64,000 nucleotides of DNA. Origin: Marsupella aquatica (Eukaryota > Plantae > Marchantiophyta). Location of the stretch: assembly GCA_973895155.1 (NCBI GenBank), contig OZ316894.1, positions 3,434,944 to 3,498,943 on the forward strand. The letters are read 5' to 3'. The notes under the pieces were generated by a model. That model had not been told where the DNA came from, searched no databases, and saw nothing but the letters and a program-made list of their open reading frames with translations. Numbering within the stretch: position 1 is the stretch's first letter; every line of letters begins with the position of its first letter. Position numbers and translations under genes: made by a program. Shown here piece after piece: positions 2,183 through 42,637 of the stretch.

Positions 2183-5100
2183 TCATTCTTCCTTGAGTAG
2201 GTCATTTAAAGTTCTTATAGTGACTGCTTCTTGACCTATCTTCTGAATATTAAGCCAGAACTCAAGCAGAACATTCATGGATGGGCGCTCAGCCTTGCAC
2301 AAAAAATGCCTAACTGTAATGTTAACGTCACTTGCTTCCTAATGATAGCATCACTAGCACCCTCAATTTTGAGAGTTGGGGTGAGGACGTTGAATGGTGT
2401 ACTTCCAGGTGTAATATTTAACTCTTGAAAACTCTGCTGCACTATGGCCACTAGACCCTCATCTTGGCCAGAAAGGGTCATGCTTGGAGATTGTATAACT
2501 GGTTTTCGGGTCAAGAGATCAAGAAGAACCACTCCAAAGCTATAAACATCTCCTTTGGTGCTGACTCTTGCGCCCTGTCCCATATGCTGGATAAACAAAG
2601 TAACCCAAATTTTGTTAGGAAGAAAACAACAATAGTATTTCAAGTTACAATTCTAGTGCTGGTTTCAAGGTGTCACATTGAAAAGACCGTGTATATAGAT
2701 ATGATAATTCCACCACTCAATACTCTTATTAGCCAGGACCTGAACTAACTACCCTACCCCAAGCACTTGAGTATTTGATTGCCCCGTTATTAGAATACAG
2801 AAAGTAACTGTTCTATCAAAGGGCAGTGATGGGTTTTGTGTCTCACTGGGCTAAACTGTCTGACTACATTTACTAGGAAAAAAAATGAAATGTTCCCCAC
2901 ACTTACAAGTTGGAAAAACCTCTATAGTAAGCAGTTTACAAATCTAGTTGAGCTGTTATGAAGGACCAAACGTGATTGTAGGCTCATGACAGTTGGCCCA
3001 ACCAGAAAGTGCATGCTCGCCAATTACTGATTTGATTAATTGTGGATACAAAAACCAAGGAGGAGAAAATCCGGTCAGACAAACTCCTGGCTATACTTCC
3101 CAACGTACCTGTGCTCTTGCAAGTCTTGTTTCCAATTTTTGGAATTCCTCGTTCCAATCACTCTGTAGTTCGAATGGAACAGATTTAATGAATAGAACAA
3201 GCTTACCTGGGGGCATGTAGTGCCACAAATGGTCGAGGCAGACACTTCCCCATTCTCCCCATGATTGCTGTATCCACAAACTTGGAAATCCCAAAGTCAC
3301 ACAGTGTTGGTTCCAAATCTGCATTCAGAAGTATGTTGCTTGGTTTCAAATCGCTATGAATGATCGGATTTGGAAGTTCGTGGTGAAGGTGCACTATTCC
3401 ATGCGTCACACCCAAGAGTATCTTCAATCGTTTTGCTTAAGTAAACTCACATGGGGTATCCCCATACAGGTTCGCATGTAAACTCCCCTTTGGCATGTAT
3501 TGCAGCAAGATGGCCTTCAAATCCACACTGGAGTACAACCCAACAACCTAAATGATATTGCGGTGCTGCAACTGAGCAAGAGTGTGCGCCTCACTCAAGA
3601 TCTCCTTCTCATCATGCTGCTCCCCCTCAATTGTAGAGAGCCCTCGATCCTTGAAAACTTTGACAGCAATGATCTAACCCGCCCTGTAAATCGACCCTGT
3701 AGACACTGCTTTTGGGGCCGTTTCCAATTGCGGAGTCCTCCCCATCTCCTAGCCCTACTGCAGCATGTCAAACTTTGTAAAGAACTTCATTGAAGAACAT
3801 GAGTAAATGTTACGAGTCCAAGGTCCCCACTATCTTTCTTGCCATGACAGCGGGAGGGGATATACAACTGAAGGCTCCAACAAGAACTACAACAAACCCA
3901 AGAGCAGAAACTGTGGATATCCACACTTGGGGACAGTCAAAACCGTTGCAATGTGACCTCGAGCCCACTGGCGAACCTATTTCAACAGGACAGTGCCGTT
4001 CAGGCCCAAGAATATCTCCACACAGGCCAGGATTTCCCAAAAATGAAGCCGTCGTCAGATTGTCCTGGAAAGCACCTAAATTAGGAATCGGCCCACTGAA
4101 GTTGTTATGAGAAGCGTTGAAGGTCGTGAGATTCTGAAGCAGTCCAAGATCTTTAGGAATTGCTCCTGACAACTGATTGAAAGAGAGATCCAAGCTTTCA
4201 AGCAAAAGACATCCTCCAAGGCCCAAAGGAATCGGTCCTGAGATATTGCTGACGGATACATTTATCACAATAATCTGTATTAGATCAATAAATTGTGATG
4301 GCCATGAACCAGAAAATAGATTGCCGGATAGACTCAACATGGCCAGAGAAGAAATTGTTGCAAAAGCTTCCCCGGGAATACTGCCGATCAATTTGTTGTG
4401 TGAAAAATCCACTGATAGAAGCTGTGTACAATTGCCCAAGGAAGCCGGAAGTACCCCGATGAATTTGTTTGCAGCCATATACAATGTCAATCTGGCCAAT
4501 CTCCGTTGGTATCATCCTACCCAAGTTACCTTCAGTAAGGTCAAGGGTTTGCATCAAGTGACAGTTCCTAAGGATGAGGAGCTCCGCTGGAATACTTCCA
4601 GAAAGCTGATTGTGGCCAAGGTATAGAATTGTCTTGTAGATTGGTCAAATTGGCGAGCCCGAGCGGAATTGCAAAATATTCAGGTGGGAGCAATTGCTGA
4701 AGGATTCTGGAATCGGGCCGTGAGATTCAGTATCCACACTGGGAAACTGTCCTCAAAACTGCAGAGTAATACGCGAAAATCTTGCAAGTGAATACACTCC
4801 CCTAACTGGAACGGGAGTTCCCCTCCCAGTCTAATATTGTAGCTCAACCACTAGTGGGTAAGTGATGATCATTTACCCAAAGTAGATGGAAAGGAGCCAG
4901 AAACTGAGCTGTTGTTGAGACTCAGAAACTTCAGGTAGGAAAAGAAGGCCGACCTACCTGAGGCCGCCAGATTGAGGGTGGTGACATGCGTGGAGTTCTG
5001 AGCACATCCAATCCAGGGCCATCTACAGGGATCAAAGTCATTTGCGTGCCAACTATTGAACAGTCCCTGCGGATCGCCCGTGATTTCACTCTTGAACCCG

Positions 5101-7295: not shown

Positions 7296-9140
7296 AAGAA
7301 AAAGAAGGAATTCATCCACGAGGACAGTTCACATTATATGGTCTTCTAGCTGGGACAACAGATCTTTGGAGGTCTGTACCTTTGACTCAGTACAGGCACT
7401 CTAAGATTAGATTCCGTGCTAGTTACCCCCATCTTGGATAGCTTTGTGGTAAGTGCACACCAAATAGCAGTAGTAGGAGACCTAGACAGAACAACACTTC
7501 CTGATGTAACAGAACAATGGGTTGCCTTAGTATGGGAAATCGGCTCAACCTGTGGTTGGGTACTTCCCAAATAAGTTAATTCCAGCTTAGGGTGTTGCAT
7601 TTTTATGTAATTAAATTATATATTGCCTGGTGTTTTGATGTGCAATTAGCCCCATGCTCTTGGGTATCTTTCCAGATAGGGAACAAAAAGAAGCGTCGAG
7701 GAAAGAGCATTCATTAATTGGTGAAGGGAAGTCAAAGGATACGGTCTTCTAGGTTGATCCACAAATTTCTTGTAGAGTATCTTGGATTAATATAATAATA
7801 TGTCTATGGGGATTAGGTAGTGGGCAATGACTCTAGTGCATCTTGGGCCCAGTTTTCGATTCGGGGAAAAGTGAAGGCACGAACTCAGGGTTTTGTTGAC
7901 TCACGTTCTATCCTACATTGTTCACCCTCGTCACTGATGGTGAAGTGCTTGGAAGTGCAATACATGGCACTCAGACTCTATGCTGCCCGAACCAAGTGAG
8001 ATTAATTATGCAAAACAAACTCTCCAAGTGTCTAGAGCTATATATGTCTCGACCCCACTCTATGCTGCCCGAACCAACTGAAATTATGCAAAATTAACAA
8101 ATTCTAGGTGTCAAGAGCTACTTCTGGACTCCAGGTACTTTTGAGTGTGGTTTGTTTCAAAAGGAAGGTACAGCCAGGGGGATTCAAATTCTACCCCTCC
8201 CCACTCAGATGGTCTGCCACTTAAAGCCTAGCATGGCTTGTATCCATATTATGAGACCAGGGCTCGGGCAGCAAGTGGCAAGCAGTAGGCACAGGTAGCC
8301 TGTGGACACTGCTATCATGGCACATCCAGGACTCGGTACCCTAAATCTTGGTAAAGCTATTTTTTTAACCCAAATCTTTTGTTGTTGCATTTCAATGAAA
8401 GTTATTAATGTTAAAACTGATAGTGTCCGCAGTAAATAATATGAGGGAACTACTAATTTACCTAGATGTGCATAACACTATTTGGAGGGTAACATGGTCT
8501 GAAGCAAAATCAGTAGAGCAATCAAGGAACACATATGTCAAAGATGACCGGGCACATTGCATCATTAGCAAAATCTGATATGAAGTTTGCAGTCTGAATC
8601 CATTGCCTTCTCTACTATCCTGTGGAAATTAGTCAACAATAAGTTGCAATACTTGCCAAAGCTATGGCAGCAGAGATCACGGACAGTAGTATAACATAGT
8701 CGCACTTGATAAAATGGGAATTAATCTTCATCATGGAATTGCAAATTAAAATACAGCTAGCAGAAAACTTATAGTGATTAGTGTTGTTCCATGCTGAATC
8801 CGACCCACTCTCAAATTAGGGTTACCGCGGTTAATGTGACACACTAACTGACCATAAAACCAATTTCTGTGAATAACGTAGATTCTATTGTTAGATGTCC
8901 ATGGAGCTTTGGCTCATGGGTGCATAATATTTAACACCTAGGGAACAACACTGATGTGTGTTCTCTATCCGTTGACATGTATTGGAGACATGATGTCTTA
9001 CCTTGATTTGTCCCCGTCTCAGTATTAAATTGCTGGAGAAATGGCAATGAATTTTACATTGCAAGGATGTATTGCCACCAGCCATCTTAAATGTAGCCCT
9101 CATTTCTGAATATTTTTTTGCCTGAAGTCATAGTGAGTCA

Positions 9141-9561
9141 TGTTGGGTATTTACTCTTACGTCTAGGTTAGGTATGACGTGGTTGGTACAACAACGTGGG
9201 TTGGTACAACTACGTGGTTAGGTACAACTACGTGATTAGGTACAACTATGTGGTTAGGTACAACTACGTAATTAGGTACAACTATGTGGTTAGGTACAAC
9301 TAAGTTGCACACTATATCATAAGAGGCATGTGTGCTTGGAGAGGTAGAACCAAGGCTCATTGTTATGGAGCCACTTGAGAGATAGGGAGAGCTTACACTG
9401 TGGAGACTCGGTATAGCCGACGGGCTTAGAGTTCAGTAAAGCTCTCTTGTGTGTTCCCGTGGACGTAGCCTCAAGGAGGTGAACCACGTATCTCTTGTGT
9501 CGACTATTGTGCGTTGGATGGTTCATGGGCTTGCCGTTGCGATCGTCGTCTATGCTCAACA
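9141..9561 (+). repeat. 5' LTR of element 1, with about 7 copies of an 18-bp U3 tandem repeat (GGTTAGGTACAACTACGT-like)
   Basis: Direct repeat of 14755-15175; tandem array at about 9177-9303. Confidence 0.97.
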
Positions 9562-9563
9562 AT

Positions 9564-9575
9564 TGGTATCAGAGC
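9564..9575 (+). promoter_or_regulatory. Primer binding site (initiator tRNA-Met), element 1
   Basis: TGGTATCAGAGC 2 nt after the 5' LTR. Confidence 0.95.
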
Positions 9576-10267
9576 ATGCTTGGGAGGTGACGTGTGTTCG
9601 TGACGGGATTTCATGACGGTTTTTCCAGCGTTGAGTGTTGGTGGATTTTCCAGAGTTCCATCGCATGGAACTTGGAGTTTATGGGCTCAACGGATAGATC
9701 AGGGCAAGAGCTTTCTAACGGTGTGAAGAAATCGTTGAACGGAGCTCGTGGTGCAGAGAGATCTAAGTTTTCGTCGTTCTGGATTTTGTGAAGAAAGTTG
9801 GCAATCGACTCGGAGGGAGAAGCGTCAAGTGTTTTGACTCAACGGAGAGATTGAGGCAAGACGATTGTTTTTGAGTCCGGGATTGGCTCTTTGATGCAAA
9901 GAGGAAGGCTAAGCAAAATCAATTACCTTGTTGGACTTGGTGACGGCACCAAGTGCAATTGATCAACATTCGTTGTTGACAAGTGAGGTCGTAGCCATTG
10001 AAGTTGGCAATGCAGCGCACCAATCACATCGCAATTCCGACAACGGGTTGTACTTGGTATTTCGGTTATTCCCTGAGGTGGTCAAAACGGGGGAGTTTCC
10101 CAAGGTTTTACCCACCTCGACCGAAATTTGAATAACTTTTCCGTCAAATTTCGATTTTGATTTTGGTTTTCAGTATTGGACTCCTAGCTTTGTGGGCTAC
10201 GCGGCGGTGTTGAGTTTCGAGTTTTTTGAGAAGTTGTGAAAAACAACATTTTTTGTGACTTTCTCAT

Positions 10268-11302
10268 ATGAGTGATTCGGAGGAGTTTTTCGAAGACGTG
10301 GAACTTGAAGCACGAGGATCACCACGGAGGTTTCAGGGGCAGAGAGAGGAGCAGGAGGAAGAGCACGTGACACCGATACCATCACCGGTGCGGCGTGTGG
10401 TGGAGGAAGCAGTACTACTACCGGAGCTCACGGTAAAGAAGAAGATGGGGACTTTCAAGCTTGGGGGACCCAAGTATGAAGTGACAAAGTATGATGGGCG
10501 CTCTGACTACTTGCTATGGGAGAAGCAGGTGAAGGGAGTGCTTTATGCGTCAGGGATGGGCCAACTGCTGAGCCCTCGTGAAGACGATGTTGATGAGAAA
10601 CAATGGGACCGCATGCAGGAGCAGGGAGTGTGGTGTGTTACACTCTATCTCATGCCTCCCATCATCAAGCAGTTAGGTGCACATAAGGATTGCATGTCCT
10701 TGTTTGCGGAATTGCAGAGCAAGTATCACCGCAAGGAGTTGTCGAACCGGCTCTACACTTCCTACAAACTGATGAGTTTCAGGATGAAGGAATCTGGTAC
10801 GAAGTTGCAAGACCATGTGGATGCTTTCAACGACATGGTCGTTGACTTGGAAAACCTTGGGGAGACTTTGAATGATGAGACGAAGGCTCTGCAGCTTCTT
10901 AGTTCATTGCCTCCATCTTACCAGTCCCTATCACGAGTGTTGTTGCATCGTGATAGGGATACCATTTCATACAATGACGTGGTAAGTTCTTTGCTTAGTG
11001 ATGATCTTCAGCAGAAGATGCACATCACGTCACAGCCTTCATCATCTGGTGCTACCCTCAATGTTAACCGTGGGAGGAGTATGCAGCGACCAACTGGGGA
11101 CCGTAGAACCCAGTTTAGATCTAAATCCAGATCTAAGTCCAAGGGTAAATCCCCTCAGAGGAGGCAGGTGACATGTTGGAAGTGCAACCAAGTTGGACAC
11201 TTCAAGCGAGACTGTAAGGGAAAGGCAGCGGAAACTTCATCGGCAAATGTGGCTAGGGCTGATGGAGAAGCTGATTTACTCAATGATGAGTATGTTTTAT
11301 GA
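10268..11302 (+). CDS. gag: Copia Gag (capsid-like region + CCHC zinc knuckle), ends at UGA
   Basis: 344-aa ORF with KYDGRSDYLLW, LLSSLPPSY and CWKCNQVGHFKRDC. Confidence 0.93.
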   Translation: MSDSEEFFEDVELEARGSPRRFQGQREEQEEEHVTPIPSPVRRVVEEAVLLPELTVKKKMGTFKLGGPKYEVTKYDGRSDYLLWEKQVKGVLYASGMGQLLSPREDDVDEKQWDRMQEQGVWCVTLYLMPPIIKQLGAHKDCMSLFAELQSKYHRKELSNRLYTSYKLMSFRMKESGTKLQDHVDAFNDMVVDLENLGETLNDETKALQLLSSLPPSYQSLSRVLLHRDRDTISYNDVVSSLLSDDLQQKMHITSQPSSSGATLNVNRGRSMQRPTGDRRTQFRSKSRSKSKGKSPQRRQVTCWKCNQVGHFKRDCKGKAAETSSANVARADGEADLLNDEYVL

Positions 11303-14300
11303 AGCCGGGGGTATGCCCTGTGCACGTCATCTAGGAGAGCAGATGATGTGTGGATTCTTGATTGTGCTTGCTCTTTTCATATTTGTTACATTCGTGAGTT
11401 TTTCAGTTCTTACTCTGTTTCAAACGGTTCAGTTCTGATGGGAAATGATCACTCCTGTCAAATTGAGGGAATTGGGTCTGTGAAGATTCAAATGTTTGAT
11501 GGCGCTGTGCGCACAGTGTCCGGAGTCAGGTATGTACCTGGCATGCGTAAGAATCTGATTTCACTCGGTGTGTTGGATTCAAATGGTCATCAATGGAGCG
11601 TTATTGATGGTGAACTTCAAGTCAGGTCGGGAGAGACAGTGATTTTGAAGGGGAGTAGACAAAAGAATTTGTATGTGTTATAGGGCAATACTGTATGTGG
11701 AGAGGCCAATATAACCAAGTCTCACGAGGAGATGACTCAACTGTGGCATTCACGGCTAGGCCACATGAGTGAGAAGGGTTTGGCTATCTTACGGAAGAAT
11801 GGACTCATTTCTGATTTGCAATCTTGTAAATTAGAGTTTTGTGAGCATTGCATTCTTGGAAAGCAGCATCGTCGTGCTTTTGGTGTTGGAACTCATCGTT
11901 CCAAAGCGGTTCTTGAGTACATACATAGTGACGTGTGGGGTCCATCCCCGACTCCCTCACACTCTGGAAAGTTGTACTATGTATCATTTATTGATGATTA
12001 CTCAAGATTTGTGTGGATTTATTTCATGACGCATAAGTCTGATGTCTTGTCCATTTTTAAGAAGTGGAAGGCCCAGGTGGAGAATCAGACTGGAAACACG
12101 ATCAAGTGTTTGGATACAAGGGTGAAGAGTCTGAGGTCAGACAACGGCGGGGAGTACACTTCAATGGAATTTGAAGAGTACTGTTCAGAACAGGGGATAA
12201 CTCGCCATCTCACCACAGTTTATACTCCGTAGCAGAATGGTGTCGCTGAGAGGCTCAATCGGACACTGTTGGAGCGGTCACGGAGTATGTTGAGCCAATC
12301 AGGTTTACCACAAGAATTTTGGGCAGAAGCTGTCAATACCGCAGCTTATTTGGTAAATCTTTCTCCTTCTAGTGCTATCAATTTCAAAACGCCATTTGAG
12401 ATGCGCTATAAGCGGCAAGCAGACTATCATGGCTTGGTAATTTTTGGAAGTGATGCATATGCTCTCACACCAAAGCAAAATAGGACCAAGTTGGATCCTA
12501 CCTCCAGGAAATGTGTTTTTCTTGGGTACCAGAGTGGTGTGAAAGCCTATAGGCTATGGGATCCTATTGCCTGTAAGCTCGTTGTCAGTAGGGATGTTTC
12601 CTTCAATGAATCCAGATTATTGAAGGAGGGGGAGAATACTCAGGTCTCCCGTACTGACAAAGGAAAATCTCCTATCCCGGATCTCGTTGAGGGGAAGATT
12701 GGTTATGAGGTGCATGACCGGAGAGAAGGAGTTGCTCCAATTATGGAGCTGGTTCCTATGCCAGAGGAACCAGAGGAGTTTGTTGATGCTGGTGAGCAAC
12801 AAGTGGATGCTGTTGAGCTTCAAATTGTACCAGCACACGCAGATCAACCAGAGTCATCGGCTAGAAGAACATCTGGTCGCACTGTACGCGCTCCATCAAG
12901 GTATGGACAGTGGGTTGATTCATCTCAACTGCAAGAGGATGATTTTACAGTTGATGATGAGGGTGATGCGTTAATTTTGGAAGAAGGAGAACCTTCTTCA
13001 TTTCATGAGGCAAGTGCTTCAAAAGAGAAGCAGAAGTGGACTGCAGCAATGCAAACGGAGATGCAGTCACTAAAGGACAACAAAACTTGGGAGCTTGTTA
13101 AGCTGCCTAAGGGTCAGCAAGTGGTGGACAGCAAGTGGATTTACAAGCTGAAGGATAATTCCATAGGAGGTGGATCGAAGGTCTACAAGGCTAGATTGGT
13201 AGCAAAGGGATTCACACAAGAGAAAGGTGTGGATTACAATGAGGTCTTCTCACCAGTTGCTAAGTACTCTACAATTCGACTATTGTGTGTACTTGTTGTA
13301 ATGTTTGGTCTGCTCCTAGATCAGATGGATGTTGTCACAGCTTTCCTCTATGGCACATTGGAAGAGGTGATCTTCATGAGACAACCGCTAGGTTTTGTGA
13401 AGAGAGGACAGGAGGAATTGGTTTGCAGATTGCTGAAATCCTTGTATGGGTTGAAGCAGTCACCAAGACAGTGGAACAAGCGGTTTGACGATTGGATTCG
13501 GTCACAAGGTTTTCACAGAAGTGTATTTGACCCTTGTGTGTATTTGAAACCGGTGAAGAATGTTGTCTTTGGGTTCATTATTTTAGTACTTTATGTGGAT
13601 GACATGCTAATTGCAGCCAAGGATAGGTCTGAGATTGTTAAGCTCAAGGCACTGCTTAGTGCAGAGTTTAAGATGAAGGACTTAGGGCCAGCTAAGAGGA
13701 TTTTGGGTATGGAGATCACTAGGGACTTGGAGGCTGGCAAGCTATGGTTGACGCAGAGCAGTTATGCGAGGAAGGTAATTGCAAGGTTCAACATGGAGAA
13801 TAGCAAGCCAGTAAGTACCCCGTTGGCTCCACACTTCAAGTTATCATCAGCGTTCTGTCCTACGGATGACACAGAGAAGGGGTTGATGTCAAAGGTTCCA
13901 TATGACAAGGCAGTGGGGAGTCTCATGTATTTGATGACTTGCACTAGACCTGATCTTGCCATGGCTATGGGCAAGGTGAGCAGGTACATGTCGAATCCAG
14001 GGAAGGTACACTGGGAAGCAGTGAAGTGGATTATCAGGTACTTGAAGGGTACCGTGGATCATGGTCTTTTATTTGATGCGAATGCAAAGAATGCTAGATC
14101 ATTGATTGGCTATGTAGATTCTGACTATGGACAAGATTTGGACCGAAGGAGATCAACAACAGGATACGTGTTCACACTTGGCGGTGGATGCATAAGTTGG
14201 AGGTCTACTTTGCAGAAGTGTATTGCTCAGTCTACTACAGAAGCGGAGTATGTTGCAGCTGCGGAAGCGATTTGGTTGGATAGACTTATCACTGAAATGG

Positions 14301-14563
14301 GATTGCCACAGGGGAATGTGAAGCTCCATTGTGATAGTCAAAGTGCGCTCCACCTTGCTGTGAACCAGGTGATGGACAGCAGAGTGAAGCACATTGACGT
14401 CAGGTACCATTTTATCAGGCAGGCTGTGTCTGATAATTTGTTTGAGCTAGTCAAGATTGATGGTAAACTCAACCCGGCTGACGCATTTACCAAAGTGATT
14501 CCTTTGGAGAGTTTCTCTAGACACCGTGACGTATTGCAGGTTTTGCAATTGCATCACAAGTAG
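11303..14563 (+). pseudogene. pol: Copia Pol (protease, GAG-pre-integrase, integrase, RT, RNase H), same frame as gag, two premature TAG stops
   Basis: WILDCACSFH, LWHSRLGH..CEHC, HSDVWGP, RSDNGGEY, YKARLVAKG, LYVDDML, YVDSDYG. All ORF pieces are in one frame; TAG at 11681-11683 and 12230-12232; 4-codon deletion in RNase H relative to element 2. Confidence 0.95.
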
Positions 14564-14743
14564 AGTTTTCTTAAACATTCATTGTAATTACTGATATATG
14601 CTCTTCCTCATTCCTATGTATTAGGCTACGGCTTAGTTCTGGTTTGCTCTAGTTAGAGAGGGAAACCGGTTTGGTTTTTGTCCAGAACTTCCCGCTGAGG
14701 GATCATATACATTGGCAGTATTACTCTCCCCTAGACCAGAGTC

Positions 14744-14753
14744 AAGGGGAAGA
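14744..14753 (+). promoter_or_regulatory. Polypurine tract, element 1
   Basis: AAGGGGAAGA just before the 3' LTR. Confidence 0.9.
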
Positions 14754-14754
14754 T

Positions 14755-15175
14755 TGTTGGGTATTTACTCTTACGTCTAGGTTAGGTATGACGTGGTTGG
14801 TACAACAACGTGGGTTGGTACAACTACGTGGTTAGGTACAACTACGTGATTAGGTACAACTATGTGGTTAGGTACAACTACGTAATTAGGTACAACTATG
14901 TGGTTAGGTACAACTAAGTTGCACACTATATCATAAGAGGCATGTGTGCTTGGAGAGGTAGAACCAAGGCTCATTGTTATGGAGCCACTTGAGAGATAGG
15001 GAGAGCTTACACTATGGAGACTCGGTATAGCCGACGGGCTTAGAGTTCAGTAAAGCTCTCTTGTGTGTTCCCGTGGACGTAGCCTCAAGGAGGTGAACCA
15101 CGTATCTCTTGTGTCGACTATTGTGCGTTGGATGGTTCATGGGCTTGCCGTTGCGATCGTCGTCTATGCTTAACA
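14755..15175 (+). repeat. 3' LTR of element 1
   Basis: 421 bp, TG..CA, followed by TSD AGTCA. Confidence 0.97.
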
Positions 15176-15199
15176 AGTCAGAACTCCATTTCCCCTGGG

Positions 15200-21524: not shown

Positions 21525-21868
21525 TGTTGAGCATAGACGATATTCGTAACGGCAAGCCCATGAACCATCCAACGCACAATAGTCGACACAGAGAGATACG
21601 TGGTTCACCTCCACATGAGGCTACGTCCACGAGAACACACAAGAGCTTTACTGCACTCTAGGCCGAACGGCCATACCAAGCATCCACAGCACAAGCTCTA
21701 CCTATCTCTCAACTAGCTCCGTAACAATGAGCCTAAGTTCCACCAGGGTCTGGCATCAGCCCTGGCTATATACACAACAGCACTACCGCTAACATTAGCT
21801 AAGTCCTAACCCGTGTTAGCCTAACTATAGTTAGCTCATGAGTCACAAGACTAGAACAATATCTAACA
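21525..21868 (-). repeat. 3' LTR of element 2
   Basis: TG..CA, direct repeat of 27947-28290. Confidence 0.96.
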
Positions 21869-22066: not shown

Positions 22067-25000
22067 CTACTTGCACTACAACTGCAAAACCTGCAAAGTA
22101 GCACGGTGTCTTGAGAAACTCTCCAAAGGAATCACTTTGGTAAAGGCATCAGGGGGATTGAGCTTTCCATCAATCTTGACTAGCTCAAAAGTTTTATCAG
22201 ACACTACTTGCCTGATAAAATGGTACCTGATATCAATGTGCTTCACCCTGCTATCCATCACCTGGTTAGCAGCCAAGTGAAGAGCACTCTAACTATCACA
22301 ATTTAGAGTCATTTTGCCACGCTCTAAACCCATCTCCGCGATCAACTTATCCAACCAAATTGCTTCCTTTGCTGCTTCTGCTGCTGCAACATACTCTGCT
22401 TCTGTAGTAAACTGAGAAATGCACTTCTGCAAGGTAGATTTCCAACTAATACATCCTCCTCCAAGAGTGTATACAAACCCAGTTGTAGACCTCCTTGTAT
22501 CCAGACAGCCTCCATAGTCAGAATCTACATAGTCAACTAACGTTCTATCTGATCTATTATCAAATAGTAATCCATAGTCCTGTGTGTCCCCTCACATACC
22601 TGAGAATCCATTTCACAGCTTCCCAATGTACCTTCCTTGGATTTGACATGAATCTGCTGACCTTGCCCATCGTTAGGGCCAAGTCAGGCCTAGTACAAGT
22701 CATCAAATACATGAGACTGCCTACTGCCTTCTCATAAGGAATCTTAGCCATCGGACCTTTCTCCACAGCATCCGTAGGAGAGAAAGTCGATGATAACTTG
22801 AAATGTGAAGCTAAAGGAATACTCACTGGCTTCCAATTTTCCATGTTGAATCGTGCAAGTACTTTCCTCGCATACTGGCCTTGACTCAAGCACAACTGTC
22901 CAGTATCAGAGTTCCTAAAAATCTCCGTCCCTAAGATCCTCTTGGCCTTACCAAGATCCTTCATCCTGAATTCAGCACTCAATTTTGCCTTGAGACTGTC
23001 AACCTCAGATTGATCTTTAGCCACAATCAGCATGTCATCCACATAGATCACCAGAATGATGAAACCAAATACATCATTCTTGATTGATTTCGTATACACA
23101 CAAGGATCATACACCATCCTTGTAAAACCTTGAGCAAGCATGAAATCATCAAACCGCTTGTTCCACTGTCTGGGAGACTGCTTCAATCCATACAAGGATT
23201 TGAGCAATTTGAAAACTAAGTTCTCTTGGCCCTTCTTCATAAAGCCTAGTGGTTGTCTCATGAAGATCAACTCTTCCATGTTGCCATAGAAAAAAGCAGT
23301 AACAACATCCATCTGATCCATCACCAGACCAAAAAACACAACAAGCTGACACAAGATCCAAATTGTGGAATACTTAGCCACCGGTGAAAAGACCTCATTG
23401 TAATCCACTCCTTTCTCTTGAGTGAATTCCTTGGCAACAAACCTTGCCTTGTAGATCTTATCACCACCCTCTGAAGGACTGTCCTTCAACTTGTAAATCC
23501 ACTTGCTGTCCACCACTTGCTGACCTCTTGGAAGCTCCACCAACTCCCATGTTTTGTTGTCACTCAAAGATTGCAACTCCCTTTGCATCCTTTGCATTGC
23601 TGCATTCACTCATGCTTCTGCTCTGAAGCACAAGCCTCACTGTACAAAGAAGGCTCTCCTTCTTCCAAGATCAAAGCCATGTCATCATCATCAGGTGCAA
23701 TGTCAATATCATCTAGCTTAGATGAGTCTGCCCATTGACCATACTTGGTAGGAGCTCTAGTAGAACGACTGGAAGTTCTTCTAGTAGATGACTCAGGCTG
23801 ATCTGCTGCTGCTGCTGGTTGAATTTGAGGTATCCAGCAACAATATGCTCCTCTTGTTCCATCACAGGAACCAGCTCCAAGCCCGGAGCTTCTCCATCTC
23901 TCCTGTAATGAACATCATCATGACTAATCTCCCCCTCAACCCGGTCCGGGATGAGAGATTTCCCCCTTTCAGTATGGGAGTCCTGAGAACTCTCCCCCTC
24001 CTTTGATGATCTGGATTCATTAAAGAACACATCTCTACTGACAATTAGCTTATAGGTTATTGGATCCCATAACCTATAACTCTTTACACCTTTCTGATAG
24101 CCAAGGAAAATGCACTTCTTCGACTTGGACTCCAGCTTGGATCGAAGCTGGGAAGATGTAAGCATAAGCTGTAGTGTTGACAGCTTCAGCCCAAAACTCA
24201 CGTGGTAAGCATGATTGACTCAACATACTCCTCGAGCAGTCCAATAGTGTTCGGTTGAGTCTCTCAGAAACACCATTCTGCTGAGGGGTATAACTTGTTG
24301 TGAGATGGCGGGTAATCCCCTGCTCCTTACAATACGTTCCAAATTCCATGGAACTGTATTCACCACCGTTATCCGATCAAAGATATCTCACCTTATTATC
24401 AGTCTGATTCTCAACTTGGGCTTTTCACTCCTTAAAAGCGGCAAAAACATCAGACTTATTGTGTAGAAAGTATTTCCACACATACCTTGAGTAATCGTCA
24501 ATGAACGTGACATAGTATAACCGTCCAGAATGTGAGGGAGTAGGGGCTGGACCCCACACATCACTATGTACATACTCAAGTACCTCCTTGCTGGTGTGAG
24601 TTTCAACTCCGAAGGGTTTCCTGTATTGCTTCCCTAGCACACAGTGCTTACAAAATTCCAACTTACAAGATAGCAAATTAGAAAGTAATCCTTTCTTCTG
24701 AAGAATAGCCAAACCTTTTTCACTCATGTGGCCCAAACGAAGTGCCACAGCCGGACCATTCCTCATGAGATAAGGTTACATTGGCTTCATCACAAACTAC
24801 ACTGCCCTCCAAAACGTATAGATTGCTATGTCTGTTTCCCTTCAATACAACTTTAGTACCAGTTGAAACCTGAAGGACACCATTAGCAGAGCTCCACTGA
24901 TGGCCATTTGCTTCTAAAACTCCAAGTGAAATGAAATTTTTCATCATGCTGGGAATATGTCTCACATTCCTCAACGTTCTTACAGCACCATCAAACATCT

Positions 25001-26243
25001 GAAATCTTACAGATCCAAGTCCAACAACTTGACATGGGATTCCATTACCCATCAACACTGACCTGTTGGAAACCGTGTAAGAACTGAAAAAATCTCTCCT
25101 AGAGCAAATGTGAAAAGTACATGCACCATCTAGAATCCAGTCATCACTACCTGGATTTGACACTACGTTGAGAGCATAACTTTGGCATCACAATATGTCA
25201 TCATCATCGAGTAAATCTACCTTATGCGAGCTCGATGCCGCGTTAGCAGATGTAGTAGGGACCTTTACTCGACAATCCCTTTTCATGTGGCCAGACTTGC
25301 CACAATTCCAACATGCAAGAGGCTTCCTCTCTTACGATTTCCCTCTAGATTTAGATCTCCCCCGTGATGTAGATCTATACCTGTTATGCTCATTCGTGCG
25401 CTGCGCTGCTCTTCCCCTGTTCACATTGAGCGCAGTGCCAGAAGAAGATGTTGTCTGTGATTGACCCAGCTTCTTATGAGCATCATCAGATAGTAAAGAG
25501 CTCACCGCCTCATTATATGAAATGGACTTCAGATCTCTATACAAGAGCACTTGTTTCAAGCCCTGATATGACGGCGGTAAGGAGCTTAGCAGAAGTAAGG
25601 CCTTATCCTCATCTTCAACTCCTTTTCCCAGGTTTGACAGATCCACTGCTAGACTGTCAAACTCATCCAGGTGATCCTGCATCTTGCTCCTTTCCTTGAG
25701 CCTGAGGCTCATCAAGAGAGACTTCTTGTACAACCGGTCTGACGCATCTTCCCGGTAGTACTTCTCTCTTAGAGCCTTGAACAGTGACGCGCAATCCGCA
25801 TAATCATCCAGCTGCTTGATGATGTGCGGCTTGAGATAAAGCATCACTGCATTGACAACAATCACTTGCTCCTGTCTCCATTGTCTCACAGAAATCTCCT
25901 CCTCTCCATCATACTGTTCTCGTGATGAAAGCAGATGAGCTAAGCCCATGGCCCGTAGAACACCCTTCACTTGCTTCTCCCAGAGCAAGTAATCAGTACG
26001 ACCATCGTACTTCTCCACCTCAAACTTCACTCCTCCAAATCTAGCCATCTCCCTCTTCTTTCCCACTACCGACAGCTTTGGTAGTAACACAGCTTCCTCC
26101 ACTGCACGCCGCACCGGTGATCGTACCGGTGTCACTAGTTCTTCCTCAAACGGTAGCAGCTCCTCCTCAGACTCTCCGTCTAACCGTCATGATCCTGAAG
26201 CTCCACCGACACCAATTCTTCCAGTATCCTCCGAGTCACTCAT
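22067..26243 (-). pseudogene. Degenerate gag-pol of element 2
   Basis: ATG 26243 (MSDSED..), KYDGRTDYLLW, CWNCGKSGHMKRDC, WILDGACTFH, HSDVWGP, TPQQNG, YVDDML, KHIDIRYHF. Several nonsense codons, frameshifts and a deletion in IN. Confidence 0.95.
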
Positions 26244-27932
26244 ATGAAACAATCACGAAAAAATGTCTTTTTTTTTAACTTCTCATAAAACTCAAAACTC
26301 AACACCGCCGTGTAGCCCACGAAGCTAGGAGTCCAATACTGAAAGCCGAAATCAAAAATGAAATTCGACAGAAAAGTTATTCAAATTTCGGTCGGGTGGG
26401 TAAAACCTTGGGAAACTCCCCCGTTTTGACCACCTCGGAGAATAACCAAAATACCAAGTACAACCCGTCGTCGGAATCGCGATGTGATTGGTGCGCCGCA
26501 TTGCTAACTCCAGTGGCAACGTCCTCACCAAAAAAGAACCCAAAAAGTTACCATTTAGCGGACGGAATCTTTGTCGGACGACTGGAAAACAACTCTCTGT
26601 TTTTTGGGAATATTCCCGCACAGTCCTACAGGTCTCACAGGGGGCCGTTCCCCCTGTCGAAGCGGTTAAAACGGAGGGTCACCGGTCCCGGGATAGCCAA
26701 TTAAAAGAGCAGGGAAGAAAAGACCAAAAAATGGCCTTAAAAGGGGGTGTTAAAGCCCTTTTAAACAGAAATACGCCCAAAACGCGCAAACAGAAAAAGA
26801 GGCGGGCCAGGAAGTATACGCAAGTCAGGCCGGGCATTTACAAGGCGTATGGCCGGGAGGCACAAGGGGGCGGAGCGCAAAGGTAAGGGGCAGCCGCGAT
26901 GGGCCGCCAACTGCCTAGCAGGGTGAGAACGGGGGCACGGGGGCGAGGCAGCGAGCCCCGGCTTAGGTTAGGGCTCGCAAGAAAAAAGGGCCGTAACGAG
27001 GCTGTAAGGAGGGCTCTCGCCAGGCGGGGTCGGGGTCGTAAGGTCCGGCCGGAGCAAGGGCGACCGGGGGCGCGGGAGCAAGGTGCGGGCGGCCTGCAGC
27101 TGCCGGGCGACAGAAAAAGCACCGGCCGGCGCTGCGTAGAAGGCCGCGGAGGGAGTTGGGGGAGTCGGGAGGGTAGCGAGTAAAGGAGGAGTATGAGGGG
27201 GGGGACGGTGTGTGTATACACACACAAGGCCCAAATGACCCCCTTAAAACAAAAAATTTACCCTAAAGCAAATAAATCCGAGTTCTCACCTGACCAGCCG
27301 CCGTTTCCAATGAGTAAACAACGAGTTACCGACGGGATATGTTGCCAAATCACACCGGCACCGTCTGCAACTCCAGTACTGTAAAAACTTCCGCTGTGTC
27401 GCCTTCACTCTGCGTCAAGTGCCAATCCCGGGCTCAAAACGACCACCTCGCCGCGATCAAACCATTAGCCGTAGCACTTCGCATCTCTTCCACTGAGTCG
27501 GACGTCACGAAGAGAAACCCGGTTCAGATGTGAACAAGCTCCATAGCTTGTGAAAAAACCTGAACGCCTCCTTCACTCGTCACGTCGCACTCGGTAACAA
27601 CTCGGCAGCAATCCAACTACCAAAACGACCAGCTCGCATCAACCTTCAACTTAAGCTATAATGTGCGATCCCTCCCGCATCGCACAGCTCACACCGTTGA
27701 AAAAAGTGAACTCTGGTCTCTCTCCCGAAATACCGTTGAACACGAATAAACCCTGAATGATGCAAACTTCGATTCCTCCCCACCACGGATACCGATCAGC
27801 AAATTCTAACCACCGTTATAAAGCCCGCTCAGCCACACACATTCAAGTTTCATGCGACGAAACTCCGAATGTGCCACCGACAATGAACGCTGGAAAAAAC
27901 CTGTCATGAAAACCTCGTCACCTCCCAGGCAT

Positions 27933-27946: not shown

Positions 27947-28290
27947 TTTTGAGCATAGACGACATTCGTAACGGCAAGCCCATGAACCATCCAACGCACA
28001 ATAGTCGACACAGAGAGATACGTGGTTCACCTCCACATGAGGCTACGTCCACGGGAACACATAAGAGCTTTACTACACTCTAGGCCGAACGGCCATACCA
28101 AGCATCCACAGCACAAGCTCTCCCTATCTCTCAACTAGCTCCGTAACAATGAGCCTAAGTTCCACCAGGGTCTGGCATCAGCCCTGGCTATATACACAAC
28201 AGCACTACCGCTAACATTAGCTAAGTCCTAACCCGTGTTAGTCTAACTGTAGTTAGCTCATGAGTCACAAGACTAGAGCAATATCTAACA
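27947..28290 (-). repeat. 5' LTR of element 2 (inner terminal CA mutated to AA)
   Basis: Begins TTTTGAGC on plus versus TGTTGAGC in the other LTR. Confidence 0.95.
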
Positions 28291-32045: not shown

Positions 32046-35000
32046 ATGGATTGGGGCTTCAGGAGATTCTTTTGTCTCTTTGCTCTAGATGCGCTTCTCT
32101 TCATCCATTGTACCCGACCGGCGGGTAAGTCTCAAGAGACATTCCTGCAAGTACCGGCAATTCTGGTGCCAGAGAGCTGAATGTCTTTGTACTGCATTTC
32201 TAGTAAACTTGCCTGCTTTGAATGTCTATTATATTTATGGGGTGCGTTTGTGGGCCTTTGCTATCATTCTCTCGCTTCAGCTGCAAATGCTAGTGGAATA
32301 CTCTATCTCTGCTCGAAGACAGTGGAATACTCTACCATACAGAATACTTTATTTAGAATTCTTTAAGGGCAACATATTTTTTGAACCCGGACTCAAAATC
32401 TAGGATCCGGAATTGGTATCTTACTCAGCCTCATGGGAAGTGGAGAAGTGTGAGAACTCATCTTTCGAGGCCAACTCAAAATTTCAGCCTTAGGACTGAG
32501 AGCTCACTAGCCCCACGGTAAATGGATATTTAAACAGAACCCAACAATCTTTCCAAGGTCACCGATACTCAATTACTAGCAATAGTCAAGGCTGTTCCCC
32601 ATTATAACGGATAGGGATTCGATTGAAGGTTCATCTGGATCTCAAAACCAATCTCACGCACGGGATCTTGTTCTCAGGGAGGTGTCTCATCAATGACGGT
32701 GGTAAATCCACGGAAAGGATTCCGACTTTATTCTAATCCAGCACTAGCTTATGCTCAAGCGTTAACCTCTTGCAAACCCCTGTACGGTTCCTCCGAGTTC
32801 TCATGAGTTTCAGGATTGTGGTTGTTGTCTGGGTAGAAGGTAACCTTTATGACTTAGTTTATTCGCCTTCAAATTCTCAGTGTGGTTTGGTGGATGCTTG
32901 GTTGATGTGCAGGTGCCACTATTGGAGTGGTTTACGGAAGCCAAGGAGACAACCTTCCTCTTTCCTCGCAAGTAGTGTCGCTCCTAACGAACAATTTCGT
33001 CACCCAAGTGAGGATCTACGACACAAGCCCAAACATTCTGAAGGCATTCGTTGGGTCCAACATACGAGTAACTGTGGGTGTCAAGAACTCTGAACTCGCC
33101 ACGGTGGGAGCGTCCAACGCCAGTGCCGCTGCCTGGGTGACCACGAATGTCATCCCCTTCGCCACCGCAGTGAACATCACCACCATTGCCGTTGGAGATG
33201 AGGTCTTGACGATGGACCCGGGCTTCTCCTCCAACCTCGCCCAGACCATGATCTGGATTCAGTCCGCTCTCATATCCCATGGCTTCGCCCAGGCCATCAA
33301 AGTCTCCACCCCTTTCAGCATGAATTATCTGCAGAATTCCTTCCCCCCATCTAAGTCCACTTTTAACCAAACAATGCTCCCGTACATCACCAGCATACTC
33401 CAGTTCATCAACGCTACAGGTTCCTATGTCATGATGAACATCGACACCTTCGGAGCCTTTCAGGCCAACTCTGCAGCACTCACTCTCCAGTATGCTCTCT
33501 TCCAACCCGACAAACTCGTAGTGGATGCGTACTCCAATTTGGCATACAAAAGTCTGTTCGATGCGCTTTTGGACTCCGCCTATGCGGCCGTGACAGCAGC
33601 CGGATTTGGCCAGTTGAGCATTGTTGTGAGTGAGACGGGCTGGCCTTCTAGTGGAGATTCAAACGAGAACGGTGCCAATGTGACCAATGCTCAGATTTAC
33701 AACTCCAACCTCGTTGCACATGTGAACAACATCTCCTCACCTGGGACACCGGCTAAGCCCTTGATTCCCATCACTGCATATGTGTATGAGCTTTTCAACG
33801 AAGACTTACTGACGGGGCCGACCTCAAACCGGTATTATGGGCTGTTCCAGTTCAATCTCACCCCTACTTACAATGTGGATCTCACCGGGCGAGGGAGGTC
33901 GTTGACGTCTAACGGGACTCAGTACGTGACGTGGTGTGTGGCGAATGCGGCTGCCACCCTACAGGCATTGCAATCGGCGCTGGATTGGGCATGTAGTCTT
34001 GGACAGGTGAACTGTGCGGCTACCCAACTGGGTGGAGCGTGTTATAACCCCAACACCCTCCCAAGCCACGCCTCTTGGGTTTTCAACGCGTACTACCAAT
34101 CTGTTAGCAATTCTCCTGGTTCCTGTGACTTCAGTGGTGCTGCGCAGGTTGTCAGCTACAATCCAAGTAAATATCTCTCGCTGTTTCTCTCTCGCTCTCA
34201 TTATCAAATTCATTCGTTCATTCAAGTAATTGCTCGTTCTCCCTGTGTCCAATGGAACGATTGATTCTCTCTCTGACCAGTGGTCTTCAAATCCATCCAT
34301 TGATAATTCTCCCTCTGGCTCTTCTCCCTGCCTGTGCCGTTGCCACTGCTAGTATGCCATTACTTGATTGGATCTTGATAGCACTCAGAATTCAGTTCGA
34401 TGGTTAGTTCTGCTAAATTAGCCTCTGTTCAGGTGGGTTCTGCATCCCTTATTGTGTCGTTTTCTCGGTGTCAACTGTTTACCGGTTACTCTCAATTTCT
34501 ATCTATTATAGGCCTTTAGCCATTCTCCCTTCTAGCGCCACTGGGCTTTGATTTCTTCATTTCTTCCCCTACTGCAATCACTGTGTCACCAAAAGCTTCC
34601 GCATCCTGAATTGATTAAGATCAAGGGGTATGAATGGAGTCTGAGGCATTTTTGTATCATGGAAGTCATATTCCGAAAGTTTTGGTGAACGTTTCATATC
34701 GTAGTACTATAAAAAATTTGGGGCCCTCCCGTTCAATCTTTCTTACTCACCAAGGACATGGAAATGCTGCACTGCGTGGTTTCTCAAATTTTGTCCATTG
34801 TTATTCACATTCGATTTTGACTGCTATTTCCATTTGTCTCCCCCATCCCCACTTTCCTTTGTCTTCTTCTGATGAGTTTCTACTCAATCGGCCTTATTTG
34901 ATAAGTGAATTAAATTCTTGAAACCATAGGCTCGAACAATGATCGAATGATGCCTGGTCGAATTGAGTCCATTCTCAGGCATCATTCCGAGCTGGGGTTG

Positions 35001-38400: not shown

Positions 38401-38660
38401 GAACGAAGAGATTCAGCAGCAGTTTCAGTAGGTATAGTTCTGAAACTTGCTGGTTTTGTGATGAACTGCAGGTAGGATGATACGCTTCACTCCTCATACT
38501 CAAGCAGAGAGACCTCAACTTCAATCGATAAACCAGCAAGCAGAGCACATCACGAGTAAGAATTTCGGTTTAACGCTGAGGAAATGCACTCCGACTTGAA
38601 CTTAGAGTAGCAGCGACATTTCAAATCCTGCCAATCCATCACTAGCGTTGCTTGGCAGCA

Positions 38661-40105
38661 ATGGACGACGACCGTGACAATTCGTTTCATGAGTTGGATG
38701 GGAGCCGGCTGGAGGGAGGGGGCCAAATATTGCGCAACAGCGTGGCATACAGCGCGTTGCTGAGGAAGGGAATTCGGATCACTAAGATCCGCGCAGGACG
38801 GGATCCGCCTGGTCTGCGTATGCAGCACTTGAAAGGCATCCAGGAGGTCCAGAAACTCTGCAATGGCGATCTCCGAGGCGCCGAGGTGTCATCCACGACC
38901 TTGTCTTTCCTCCCAGGCGAGCTCCGACCCTCCGGTATGGATCTCGTCGTCGACATCCAAACAGCCGGATCCATCACTCTCCTCATACAGACTCTGCTCC
39001 CCGTCCTCCTTTTCCAACCTCCCCCCTCCTTGTCAAGCTCGTTCTTATCATCATCAGTTGGATCAAATTCATCAAATGTATCATCTTCCAAACCTTCCAC
39101 AATTACTATCCTGGGAGGCACAAATGCTACGAACGCGCCGCAGATCGGTATGTATCTGTGCAGGATTCATTTCTAGAATAAACTGCACGTGAGACTTTGT
39201 CACATTTTTTGAATCTTGAGTCAGGTGGTCAGCATGAGGGGCGATTGTAATCCAAGTCCACAATTGCTTGTATCACAGAGTAAGTAAATCTTGATCACAG
39301 TAGCGAAATTGTATACAAAATGGCGCTGCACCTAACCTGAGATTTGTTTCGTGAGGAATAGGTTTTGAGTATGGATGCCTTTTCTTCTGAAATGCCAGAT
39401 TTCTTCACTCACATATTCCTCCCAGTGGCGGAGAGGATGTTTGGCAAGGATAGAGTGCGTGCAACAGTTCTCCAGCGAGGATACTATCCAAAGGGAGCAG
39501 GAAGGGTCCTCCTGGAGGTGACACCCCTCCCACCGGGTAAGTCTCTCAAAGCTATAGATTTGACTGTATTTGGCAGTCTGAGCAGAATTGGGGGCTATAT
39601 CTTCGTTGGGGGTAGCCTTCCACAACACATTGCATGGGATATGCACAAGCAAGTTGTGCAGGATCTCCAGCTCGCAGGAAGTGTGGGCACGGAGAGATTT
39701 CCTGAGCTAGAGAGGGATTTGAGAGTGGTGGCAGAAGAGGCGACTGGGGGAGGCAGTGGATTGGTGATTTGGGCCGAGACGGACACGGGATGTGTACTCG
39801 CAGGCACAGGATTGGGAGAACGGAAAAAGAAGCCAAAGGGCGTTGCGAAGGAGGCGACCGCGATGCTCCTTGAAAACCTGGCAGGTCAGCTGTGCGTGGA
39901 TGAATTCCTCCAGGACCAACTCATCATATACATGGCTCTTGCCAATGGGCGTTCGAGAACTCTCACCGGGCCGCTTAGCCTGCACACTCAGACGACCATG
40001 TGGCTAGCCACAGAGCTCACTGGAGTCACCTTTGATGTTGAAGAAGTCGATGGCCAACGTTTTCTCGTTCAATGTGACGGCATTGGTTTCTCCTCTCCAC
40101 TTTAG
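38661..40105 (+). CDS. RTCA: RNA 3'-terminal phosphate cyclase (class I, RtcA-type), copy 1, 2 exons
   Basis: Exons 38661-39147 and 39399-40105 splice to APQIDFFTH. Motifs DGSRLEGGGQILR, IRAGR..PGLRMQHL, TAGSITL..Q, GGTNA, RGYYPKG, DEFLQDQLII, catalytic SLHTQT. Confidence 0.93.
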
Positions 40106-41067
40106 TCCCAGTTGGCTTGTGCATACAATCGAGTGGGTATGAATGGACTGTCAGTTTCTAAAACTTCCGAATTTCTCAGGAATTTGGTTACCTCCAATCC
40201 ATTCCTAGTCGAACCTTGGCTGCAAGGACGAAAAGCTTGCAAGTATGGTAGCTGTGGCAGAAGCATCACTTTCCAACTGAGCCACGGCAGCAAGCACACA
40301 AAATTTCAAGGTATGGTTGCTGTGGTCTAACTATAAACAGTAGCGGATGGAAGCCCAATGCTTGAAAGAAGAGACCATTTGTCAGTCATCTTCTTGGACC
40401 CTGCTTTTATGGACTAGATATCCATACTTGGGGAAATTCATTTTTTAATACTTGGAGTGCGAGTCCGCGACTTGGTCATCAGCAAATCAATTTCGTGCCC
40501 CTCGTCGTTTGACCTCGTCTCGAATCAGTTGTCCATGGTGCAGCCCAGCTCATCGGCTAAGTATTGCTCCCTTGGAATACGGAAGATAAAAGCTCTTCCA
40601 TGGTTTAGGATCTGTAATTAGCTCGAGAATTAGCGTCACTCGCGATCAAGTTTAAAGGAGCAACTCAATTCATCTGCTGAAAGCTGAAGCTCGAGAGCCT
40701 TTATTCGCCTGGATAGTGAGAAATGTGAACACAGGATTTTATTTTCCAGGGTACTTAAGAGACTCTCGCAAACTTAGCACGCACTTGGAGAAAGCTGTTC
40801 ATGATTAAGTCTCCTGGATAATTCGTGTATTACCTTTCCAAGTAAGTTTGAATGCATCAGTTTATGATGTACGCAAAAAACATTGGTCTCTTCATCTGTC
40901 CTGCGGGTTAGAAAGTAAACTTGACAAGGAGGACAAAGGTGCTCCCTTCTGTGTGGTTTCTTGCGTTGACATTCAATACAAGCGGCATTTCGGATGAAGA
41001 GCGCCCTGTGCTTTTGATTCACAATCAGTAGTGTCGTTACTTCTATCACTGGTGTCGCTTAAAAGCA

Positions 41068-42637
41068 ATGGGAGATGACCGTGACAATTCGCTTCATGAG
41101 TTGGATGGGAGCCGGATGGGAGGAGGGGGCCAAATTTTGCGCAACAGTGCGGTATATAGTGCGCTGCTCAAGAAGGGGATTCGCATCACCAACATCTGCG
41201 CAGGTCGGTATCCGCCGGGTCTGCGCATGCAGCACCTGAAAGGCATCGAGGAGATCCAGAAACTCTGCAATGGCGATCTCCGAGGCGCAGTGGTCTCATC
41301 CCCGACACTTTCTTTACTCCCGGGCGAGCTCCGACCCTCCGGCATGGATCTTGTCGTAGACATCCAAACGGCCGGATCCATCGCTCTCGTCATCCAAATT
41401 CTCCTCCCCGTCCTCCTCTTCCAACCTCCCCCCTCCGCTTCAAGGTCGTCCTCATTACCATCAAATTCATCAAACGCATCTTCCTCAAAAGCATCCACAG
41501 TTACGATCATAGGAGGCACAAATACCACGGACGCACCGCAGATCGGTAGGTTTCTGGCCAGAATTGCTCCATGAGATGAGAAATGCATGTGAAACTAGGA
41601 CCAATTTATTCGTGCGTTGGTATTATCAGCAAACCATGGATTCTTAGGAAAGGGGGGTTGTGGAGTAGTGCCGGGATTTGAGCTTCTCATGAAGAAATGT
41701 AGCTGTAGAGTTACACAGGGAACCCACTTTCTCAGAAATTTGAAACAGAAGTTGAGAGGCAGGTGTATATGTTTAGTGTGGCACAGTTGGTCAACCTATG
41801 AGTAGCGGGTGTAATTCAAGTCCACAAATTCTTGTTTCACAGTCGATACATCATATTTGTACTGAAGAAATGGTACCCAAATTAGTGGTGCATGTGGCCT
41901 GAAGTTGGTTTGATTGGATGCCAGAGTTCTTCGTCCACGTATTCCTCCCAGTCGCCGAGAGGATGTTCGGCAAGGGTAGGGTGAGAGCTACAGTCCTCCA
42001 GCGAGGATACTTACCGAAGGGAGGAGGAAGGGTCCTCCTTGAAGTGACACCCCTCCCATCAGGAGAGTCCCTCGAAGCGATACATTTGACTGAATTGGGC
42101 ACCCTGAGCAGAATTGGGGCCTATATCTTCGTGAGGGGAAGCCTTCCCCAACATGTTGCCTGGGATATGCACAAGCAAGTGGTGCAGGATCTGCAGCTCG
42201 CAGGAAGTGTGGGCAGGGAGAAATTTCCTCAACTAGGGAGGGAATTCAGAGTGGTTGTGGAAGAGGCGAGTGGGGCAGGCAGTGGGTTGGTGATTTGGGC
42301 CGAGACGGAAACGGGATGTGTGCTAGCAGGCACAGGATTGCGAGAAGGGAAAAAGAAGGCAACGAGCGTTGCGAGAGAGGCAACTGAGATTCTCCTTAAG
42401 AATCTGTCAAGTGCCGTGTGTGTGGATGAGTTCCTCCAGGATCAGCTCATCATCTTCATGGCTCTTGCTAAGGGGCGTTCGAGAATTCTCTCCGGACCAC
42501 TTAGTTTGCACACTCAGACTACCATGTGGCTCGCCACAGAGCTCGCGGGAGTCACCTTTGATGTTGAAGAAGTCGAAGGCGATCGTTTTGTCATTCAATG
42601 TGATGGGATTGGTTTCTCCTCTCCACTTTGTCCCTAA
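41068..42637 (+). CDS. RTCA: RNA 3'-terminal phosphate cyclase-like, copy 2 (tandem duplicate), 2 exons
   Basis: Exons 41068-41545 and 41925-42637, same intron position and phase as copy 1. ORF intact, His motif SLHTQT kept, but the EGGGQ Glu and the first IRAGR Arg are changed. Confidence 0.9.

Follow-up and report, generated by a model that had tools for sequence, protein, structure and literature searches.

A stop codon at the end of gag, UGA in two diverged elements, marks a copia retrotransposon clade that is likely tied to liverworts

Plant retrotransposons of the Ty1/copia superfamily are described as having a single gag-pol open reading frame (ORF), and EVD and BARE1 make Gag from spliced RNA (PMC5580714 and PMC3735527, in their accessible text). 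In the Ty1/copia elements Tca2 of Candida albicans and VdLTRE5 of Verticillium dahliae, gag and pol are separated by a UGA (PMC2194720 and PMC3441728, accessible portions). The Ty3/gypsy elements Tj1, Tosmo1-3 and Tcry1 of fission yeast carry gag, stop and pol in one frame and are read through; the stop of Tj1 and Tosmo is TGA, and that of Tj1 is essential for transposition (bioRxiv 10.1101/2022.12.06.519325, available part). In additional file 5 of PMC6317226 the order GAG:stop:PROT-INT-RT-RH is tabulated for 22 SIRE elements (10%) and GAG:stop:PROT for several plant and algal gypsy groups, while a single ORF is listed for 69% of Tork elements and no determination is given for Bryco or Gymco. 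SIRE1 of soybean has a pol-stop-env order with stop suppression for env (cited in the accessible text of PMC2194720), and as of 2009 all verified cases of readthrough in plants were viral (PMC2754532). Here we describe two diverged copia insertions, E1 on the plus strand and E2 on the minus strand, in a window of 64,000 nucleotides from the liverwort Marsupella aquatica (contig OZ316894.1, positions 3,434,944 to 3,498,943; coordinates below are those of the window), which share an in-frame UGA at the gag/pol junction. The stop is judged to be genuine and to be conserved across a copia clade associated with liverworts, and from the sequences readthrough is the likely mechanism.

In a codon alignment the TGA of E1 (11300..11302) and that of E2 (25188..25190, minus strand, read 25190-25188) occupy one column, 16 sense codons upstream of the protease Trp. 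The E1 gag ORF (10268..11302, plus strand) encodes 344 residues ending in DLLNDEYVL directly before the stop, and the decayed E2 gag (25188..26243, minus strand) ends in DLLDDDDIL. Downstream of the TGA pol continues in frame 0 in both elements, and no in-frame ATG lies between the stop and the catalytic Asp (+20). The original prediction had claimed the same codon, the same column, the 16-codon distance, frame-0 pol and the lack of an intervening AUG, and all of this is confirmed, as is the preservation of a post-stop Tyr-Ala-Leu (YAL) in both elements through two synonymous third-position changes. It is equally borne out that the other nonsense codons are private, no other stop being common to E1 and E2. 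The pol of E1 contains a TAG at 11681-11683 and another at 12230-12232 (plus strand), the latter compared with E2 alone and not with reads. The private stops of E2 (minus strand) are an early TGA at 26189-26187, which sits in a poorly aligned N-terminal stretch, a TAA at 25334-25332, TGA codons at 24427 and 24379 and a TAG at 22291, and there are several frameshifts in addition.

Public sequencing contigs aligned to 11268-11352 were obtained from four runs (233, 50, 115 and 54 contigs; two studies, two organism labels), of which the best-matching may be the window's own sample; summed depth in these runs is not a copy number. The question raised by the original prediction, whether the UGA is fixed among family copies, receives a positive answer from these reads, since no variant of at least 1% is listed at 11300-11302 in any of the four runs. 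All seven variable positions in 11268-11352 lie after the stop, within 11305-11320, and the commonest vary by 11-26%. The commoner of these variants are synonymous or alter codons +2 and +3, and the Tyr and Ala codons are without variants. In contrast, the E1 TAG at 11681 is replaced by a different letter in 98.8% (run X1) and 99.9% (run X2) of the depth. The invariance of the TGA next to the near-total replacement of this TAG puts the junction stop beyond chance; it is a family trait and not decay. In run X4 (organism C) one record of 643 nucleotides spans the junction with two differences, neither at the TGA, at a low depth that may reflect carry-over. Joints in the aligned contigs are of low depth and not of the GT..AG type; none falls in 11268-11352.

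A search with the Gag sequence yielded 36 proteins and was extended by cluster members and by a profile search (best 150 of 12,873 matches). Counts were restricted to proteins with a recognisable zinc knuckle and an alignment of at least 170 residues, which excluded the run-on protein P0028 as well as fragments, among them P0022, P0025, P0026 and P0030. Both P0028 and P0023 were included in the 114-row tree. At identities of at least 39%, 32 of 37 Gag proteins stop by rule at an acidic-YxL motif, and visual inspection places the ends of two more, P0010 and P0101, in that column. Of the remaining three, P0017 and P0020 end before the motif and P0023 comes from a Marchantia gene model joined to the middle of the protease. 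None of the 37 has an open run into an intact protease. Motif-ending Gag is present in 25 of the 28 clusters formed at 90%. Among the rows of less than 36% identity, 59 are open into pol. Four distant rows (P0134, P0190, P0235 and P0217) score as stops by rule; three of them are placed outside the clade and could represent the ends of fragments. A quick tree of the 114 rows contains a 34-row clade with an SH-like approximate likelihood ratio (SH-aLRT) support of 94, comprising 27 stop rows (E1 and E2 included), seven other rows and no open row. Its 30-row core has an SH-aLRT of 100, and a separate tree agrees on this core. The named members are from Marchantia polymorpha, Calypogeia fissa and Riccia fluitans, and the clade is likely tied to liverworts, to judge from the proteins at hand. 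Within an otherwise variable linker the Gag C-terminus of the clade is conserved: the last residue is Leu in 23 of 24 representatives, and D, L and L are each present in 18 of 24.

Two Marchantia gene models, P0023 and P0032, join gag to the middle of the protease and so bypass the junction and the active site, probably through gene-finder introns forced by the stop. No full-length polyprotein among 38 matches exceeds 44% identity across the whole junction region. Searches of viral and prokaryote collections yielded no relative, the sole locus (L014) matching 19 residues around the zinc knuckle. A scan of metagenomes found 13 loci (L001-L013) of one distant copia with 33-39% identity in the protease; their junction is open in most, and they belong to a different family.

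E1 and E2 are far diverged from each other (proportion of synonymous differences, pS, 0.56-0.72), with synonymous sites near saturation. The nonsynonymous rate dN between them is 0.13-0.14 in integrase, reverse transcriptase (RT) and RNase H and 0.24 in protease, far below the synonymous rate dS of 1.0-1.8, from which it follows that pol is under purifying selection in stop-bearing elements. These observations bear on the idea that the stop reflects shared decay, or that the family is non-autonomous and uses the Pol of an open-frame helper. It is true that E1 and E2 are both broken elsewhere, that P0028 continues past the motif in non-protease sequence and that P0017 and P0020 end early. However, the stop is fixed in the reads, the Gag end is the same in nearly all clusters, selection acts on pol, and the best open-frame full-length relative is just 44% identical over the junction. 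Decay or a helper is already largely refuted, and we consider either extremely improbable.

The spacer between the stop and the protease Trp is gap-free, with 16 codons in both elements (11303..11350 in E1). Its nonsynonymous proportion pN is 0.48 against a pS of 0.74, which corresponds to a binomial p of 0.001 at a neutral level of 0.72 and of 0.08 at 0.60. The linkers of 13 of the 17 closest open relatives have a hydrophobic-small-Leu motif whose end lies 11-12 residues upstream of the protease Trp; for the post-stop YAL of E1 and E2 this distance is 11 residues. Against a profile of 16 of these open linkers, the spacers outscore nucleotide shuffles (p 0.002 for E1, 0.019 for E2) and, less clearly, residue shuffles (p 0.02 and 0.11, respectively). 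The spacer thus resembles coding sequence and keeps YAL at the distance found in open relatives, and the post-stop codons look translated, as had been proposed from the YAL alone. The distance from zinc knuckle to Trp is 45 codons in E1, inside the range of 20-58 of 59 open linkers, which indicates that no extra, intron-like spacer is present. In open elements an acidic run stands directly before the linker motif, whereas in the stop family the order is acidic run, first YxL, stop, three codons and second YAL. On this sequence pattern the two motifs look like a seven-codon duplication of the ancestral linker motif. In the open-frame copia protein P0064 the linker has an acidic-FAL motif in duplicate, which may parallel the putative duplication.

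One way past the stop would be splicing that, in a minority of transcripts, cuts the stop out and fuses gag to pol in frame, while unspliced RNA yields Gag; Ogre elements offer a precedent (accessible text of PMC6317226). A phase-2 AAG acceptor lies after the stop and before YAL in both elements (+5 in E1, +11 in E2), by which YAL would be kept, each element has an in-frame donor/acceptor pair of its own, and the D-L-L codons 9 to 7 upstream of the stop are identical in E1 and E2, third positions included. These codons contain TTTAC, which we take to be branch-point-like and count in favour of splicing. On the other hand, AAG is a minor splice acceptor, and no donor scoring at least 2 with a generic, approximate matrix lies at an aligned position common to both elements, which share 24 GT sites. 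Moreover, the candidate intron has a T content of only 22-32%, its sequence codes for the conserved C-terminal part of Gag with the zinc knuckle, and the knuckle-to-Trp distance contains no added length. Splicing is therefore regarded as unlikely.

The best explanation, to which we assign a probability of roughly 65%, is that E1 and E2 are members of a copia clade, likely specific to liverworts, with a fixed gag stop, and that Pol would arise as a Gag-Pol fusion when ribosomes occasionally read through the UGA. On full-length RNA most ribosomes would terminate at the UGA, giving an excess of Gag. A few would insert a residue there and go on through the 16-codon spacer and pol, and the resulting Gag-Pol fusion would be co-packaged with Gag. 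Readthrough would take the place of the spliced gag-only RNA used by EVD and BARE1, and the motif duplication would have let the stop arise while a probable protease release site was kept. Because the stop is conserved, pol is selected and the spacer looks translated, some bypass must set the Gag:Pol ratio; to this extent the proposal of programmed UGA readthrough or another bypass stands, but for readthrough itself neither a known leaky context nor a structure common to both elements was found. Frameshifting or hopping was rejected, as pol is in frame 0, there is no slippery heptamer and the Leu codons flanking the stop differ. An altered genetic code was likewise rejected, as two host ORFs terminate at TGA and encode Trp by TGG. 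The window contains no tRNA genes.

Several observations weigh against readthrough. The context is UGA-AGC-CGG in E1 and UGA-UGC-CAA in E2, so that the base after the UGA is A or U and not C, and none of the motifs CAA-UYA (type I), CGG (type II) or GGG-GGC (type III; PMC2754532) stands immediately 3' of the stop. No RNA structure common to E1 and E2 was found in a comparison of these two sequences, with fold z-scores of -1.44 to +1.33 over six windows; the 60-nucleotide post-stop window scores -1.65 in E1 and +0.66 in E2, and the two-sequence consensus fold is weak. An 11-bp hairpin starting about 20 nucleotides downstream of the stop is present in E1 and missing from E2, and 9-nucleotide long-range complements lie at non-homologous places in the two elements. 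The local context of the Tca2 stop gave no readthrough in yeast reporters (PMC2194720, accessible text). In addition, the trees are quick, midpoint-rooted searches, and the database relatives are known from proteins alone, some of whose Logan/ENA entries could derive from transcripts.

That no local readthrough signal appears in the folds and context of E1 and E2 is in line with another kind of bypass, as proposed for Tca2, which would rely on distant RNA signals, an internal promoter or initiation at a non-AUG codon of the spacer. The Tca2 junction shows promoter activity and a non-canonical bypass (PMC2194720, in its accessible part). A pol fragment with 69% identity, P0098, has its start called 8 residues upstream of the protease Trp, where E2 has GTG, but this start is the choice of a gene caller. 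Further points speak against such a bypass: the frame has no ATG ahead of the catalytic Asp, E1 and E2 differ in their near-cognate starts (CTG +6 and GTG +16 in E1, GTG +9 in E2), and free Pol would have no route into particles by way of Gag. We regard a bypass of the Tca2 type as quite improbable.

If readthrough operates, it is conceivable, though we advance this only tentatively, that an old clade spanning complex-thalloid and leafy liverworts passed from a single ORF to UGA readthrough by way of the linker duplication, with a signal of an undescribed type that involves neither leaky hexamer nor hairpin and possibly resides in the conserved acidic DLLxDxYxL stretch, either as nascent peptide or in the codons that encode it immediately upstream of the stop.

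Like E1 and E2, Tca2 and VdLTRE5 have the copia domain order, a single in-frame UGA and no CARYYA after the stop, as far as the accessible descriptions go. Unlike them, both are elements of fungal hosts, and Tca2 has a purine spacer and a proposed pseudoknot, neither of which is common to E1 and E2. The stop layout of the liverwort clade likely arose independently of fungal copia, as its nearest open relatives are seed-plant copia. The fission-yeast elements Tj1, Tosmo and Tcry1 and murine leukaemia virus (MLV) share the one-frame gag-stop-pol order but are of another superfamily or a retrovirus, and they have a conserved GAA-TGA-CT context or a pseudoknot (in the available descriptions), both absent from E1 and E2. 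In SIRE the gag stop is one of four layouts, the mean length is 9.9 kb and 74% of the elements have a 3' extra ORF, whereas in the clade of E1 and E2 the stop is fixed, and E1 is 6.0 kb long and has no extra ORF. The original prediction held that plant copia normally have a single gag-pol ORF and spliced Gag. They are indeed so described, but the SIRE entries mean that a gag-stop-pol layout is not unknown among plant copia. Tork/Tnt1-like elements have one gag-pol ORF, whereas E1 and E2 carry a stop behind gag in the genomic RNA itself.

Gag-stop-pol is thus already known in SIRE and fungal elements. A literature search that left most subscription papers outside turned up neither a liverwort copia with a gag stop nor a whole liverwort clade in which such a stop is fixed, so that absence from print is unproven. 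Marchantia is not mentioned in the accessible main text of PMC6317226 or in the supplement files examined, nor is the clade described in the accessible portions of PMC12885004, PMC9985172, PMC8310308 and PMC5009743. The presence of clade members in the model liverwort Marchantia allows a direct test of stop bypass by a plant retrotransposon. Should readthrough prove true, a new signal would be implied, since the context is not known to be leaky; should it prove false, the data would point to Ogre-like splicing in copia. Annotation pipelines will label intact clade members defective.

E1 is a full-length insertion of 6.0 kb (9141-15175, plus strand). Its 5' long terminal repeat (LTR; 9141..9561) has TG...CA ends and differs at two positions from the 3' LTR (14755..15175), and the target-site duplication AGTCA is found at 9136-9140, directly before the 5' LTR, and at 15176-15180, directly after the 3' LTR. 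The primer-binding site (PBS; 9564..9575, plus strand) is presumably of the full tRNA-Met type. Gag contains the capsid domain PF14223 and the zinc knuckle PF00098 (11174-11215), and pol (11303..14563, plus strand) encodes protease PF22936, integrase PF00665, RT PF07727 and RNase H in frame 0. The pol stop is separated by 180 nucleotides from the polypurine tract (14744..14753). In both LTRs of E1 a short repeat, about 16 nucleotides long, is arrayed in tandem (approximately 9170-9310 and 14785-14925); the LTRs of E2 lack this array. A strong hairpin lies within E1 gag (10924-10958, plus strand; z about -6 in a 60-nucleotide window), without an equivalent at the corresponding offset in E2.

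E2 is likewise a full-length copia insertion (28290-21525, minus strand), with 5' and 3' LTRs (27947..28290 and 21525..21868) that are 97.7% identical, a PBS at 27944-27933 and the target-site duplication CCCTT at 28295-28291 and 21524-21520. The post-stop spacer and pol (22079..25187) are decayed by the private stops and frameshifts. A stretch of 65-71% GC in the 5' leader of E2 (26800-27200) has no counterpart in E1 or in the rest of the window.

With two LTRs, PBS, polypurine tract and a 5-bp target-site duplication, both elements are LTR retrotransposons, and the Pfam order PF14223, PF00098, PF22936, PF00665, PF07727 (RVT_2 RT) is that of Ty1/copia (Gag-PR-IN-RT-RH). The PBS type, the 5-bp duplication and a length within 4.2-8.8 kb agree with Tork/Tnt1-like elements, but these traits occur in several lineages and are not diagnostic, and the single gag-pol ORF that prevails in Tork is broken in this family by the fixed TGA. 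A half-tRNA-Met PBS, as given for Bryco in PMC6317226, differs from the presumed full tRNA-Met type found here. The length of 6.0 kb and the lack of any ORF of at least 100 residues on the element strand between pol and the 3' LTR differ from SIRE. The RT-RH region is up to 55-58% identical to its best single-ORF copia matches, which are unnamed or generically named. Taken together, the sequence features would fit a Tork-like element and speak against Bryco and SIRE.

Elsewhere in the window, an RNA 3'-terminal phosphate cyclase-like gene is present as two diverged copies arranged in tandem (38635-42637, plus strand; about 85% identity), each in two ORF pieces. The host genes comprise a GH17-X8 beta-1,3-glucanase (32906-34264, plus strand) and an ArfGAP (53459-55240, minus strand), each in one long ORF, and a leucine-rich repeat fragment (3810-4511, minus strand).

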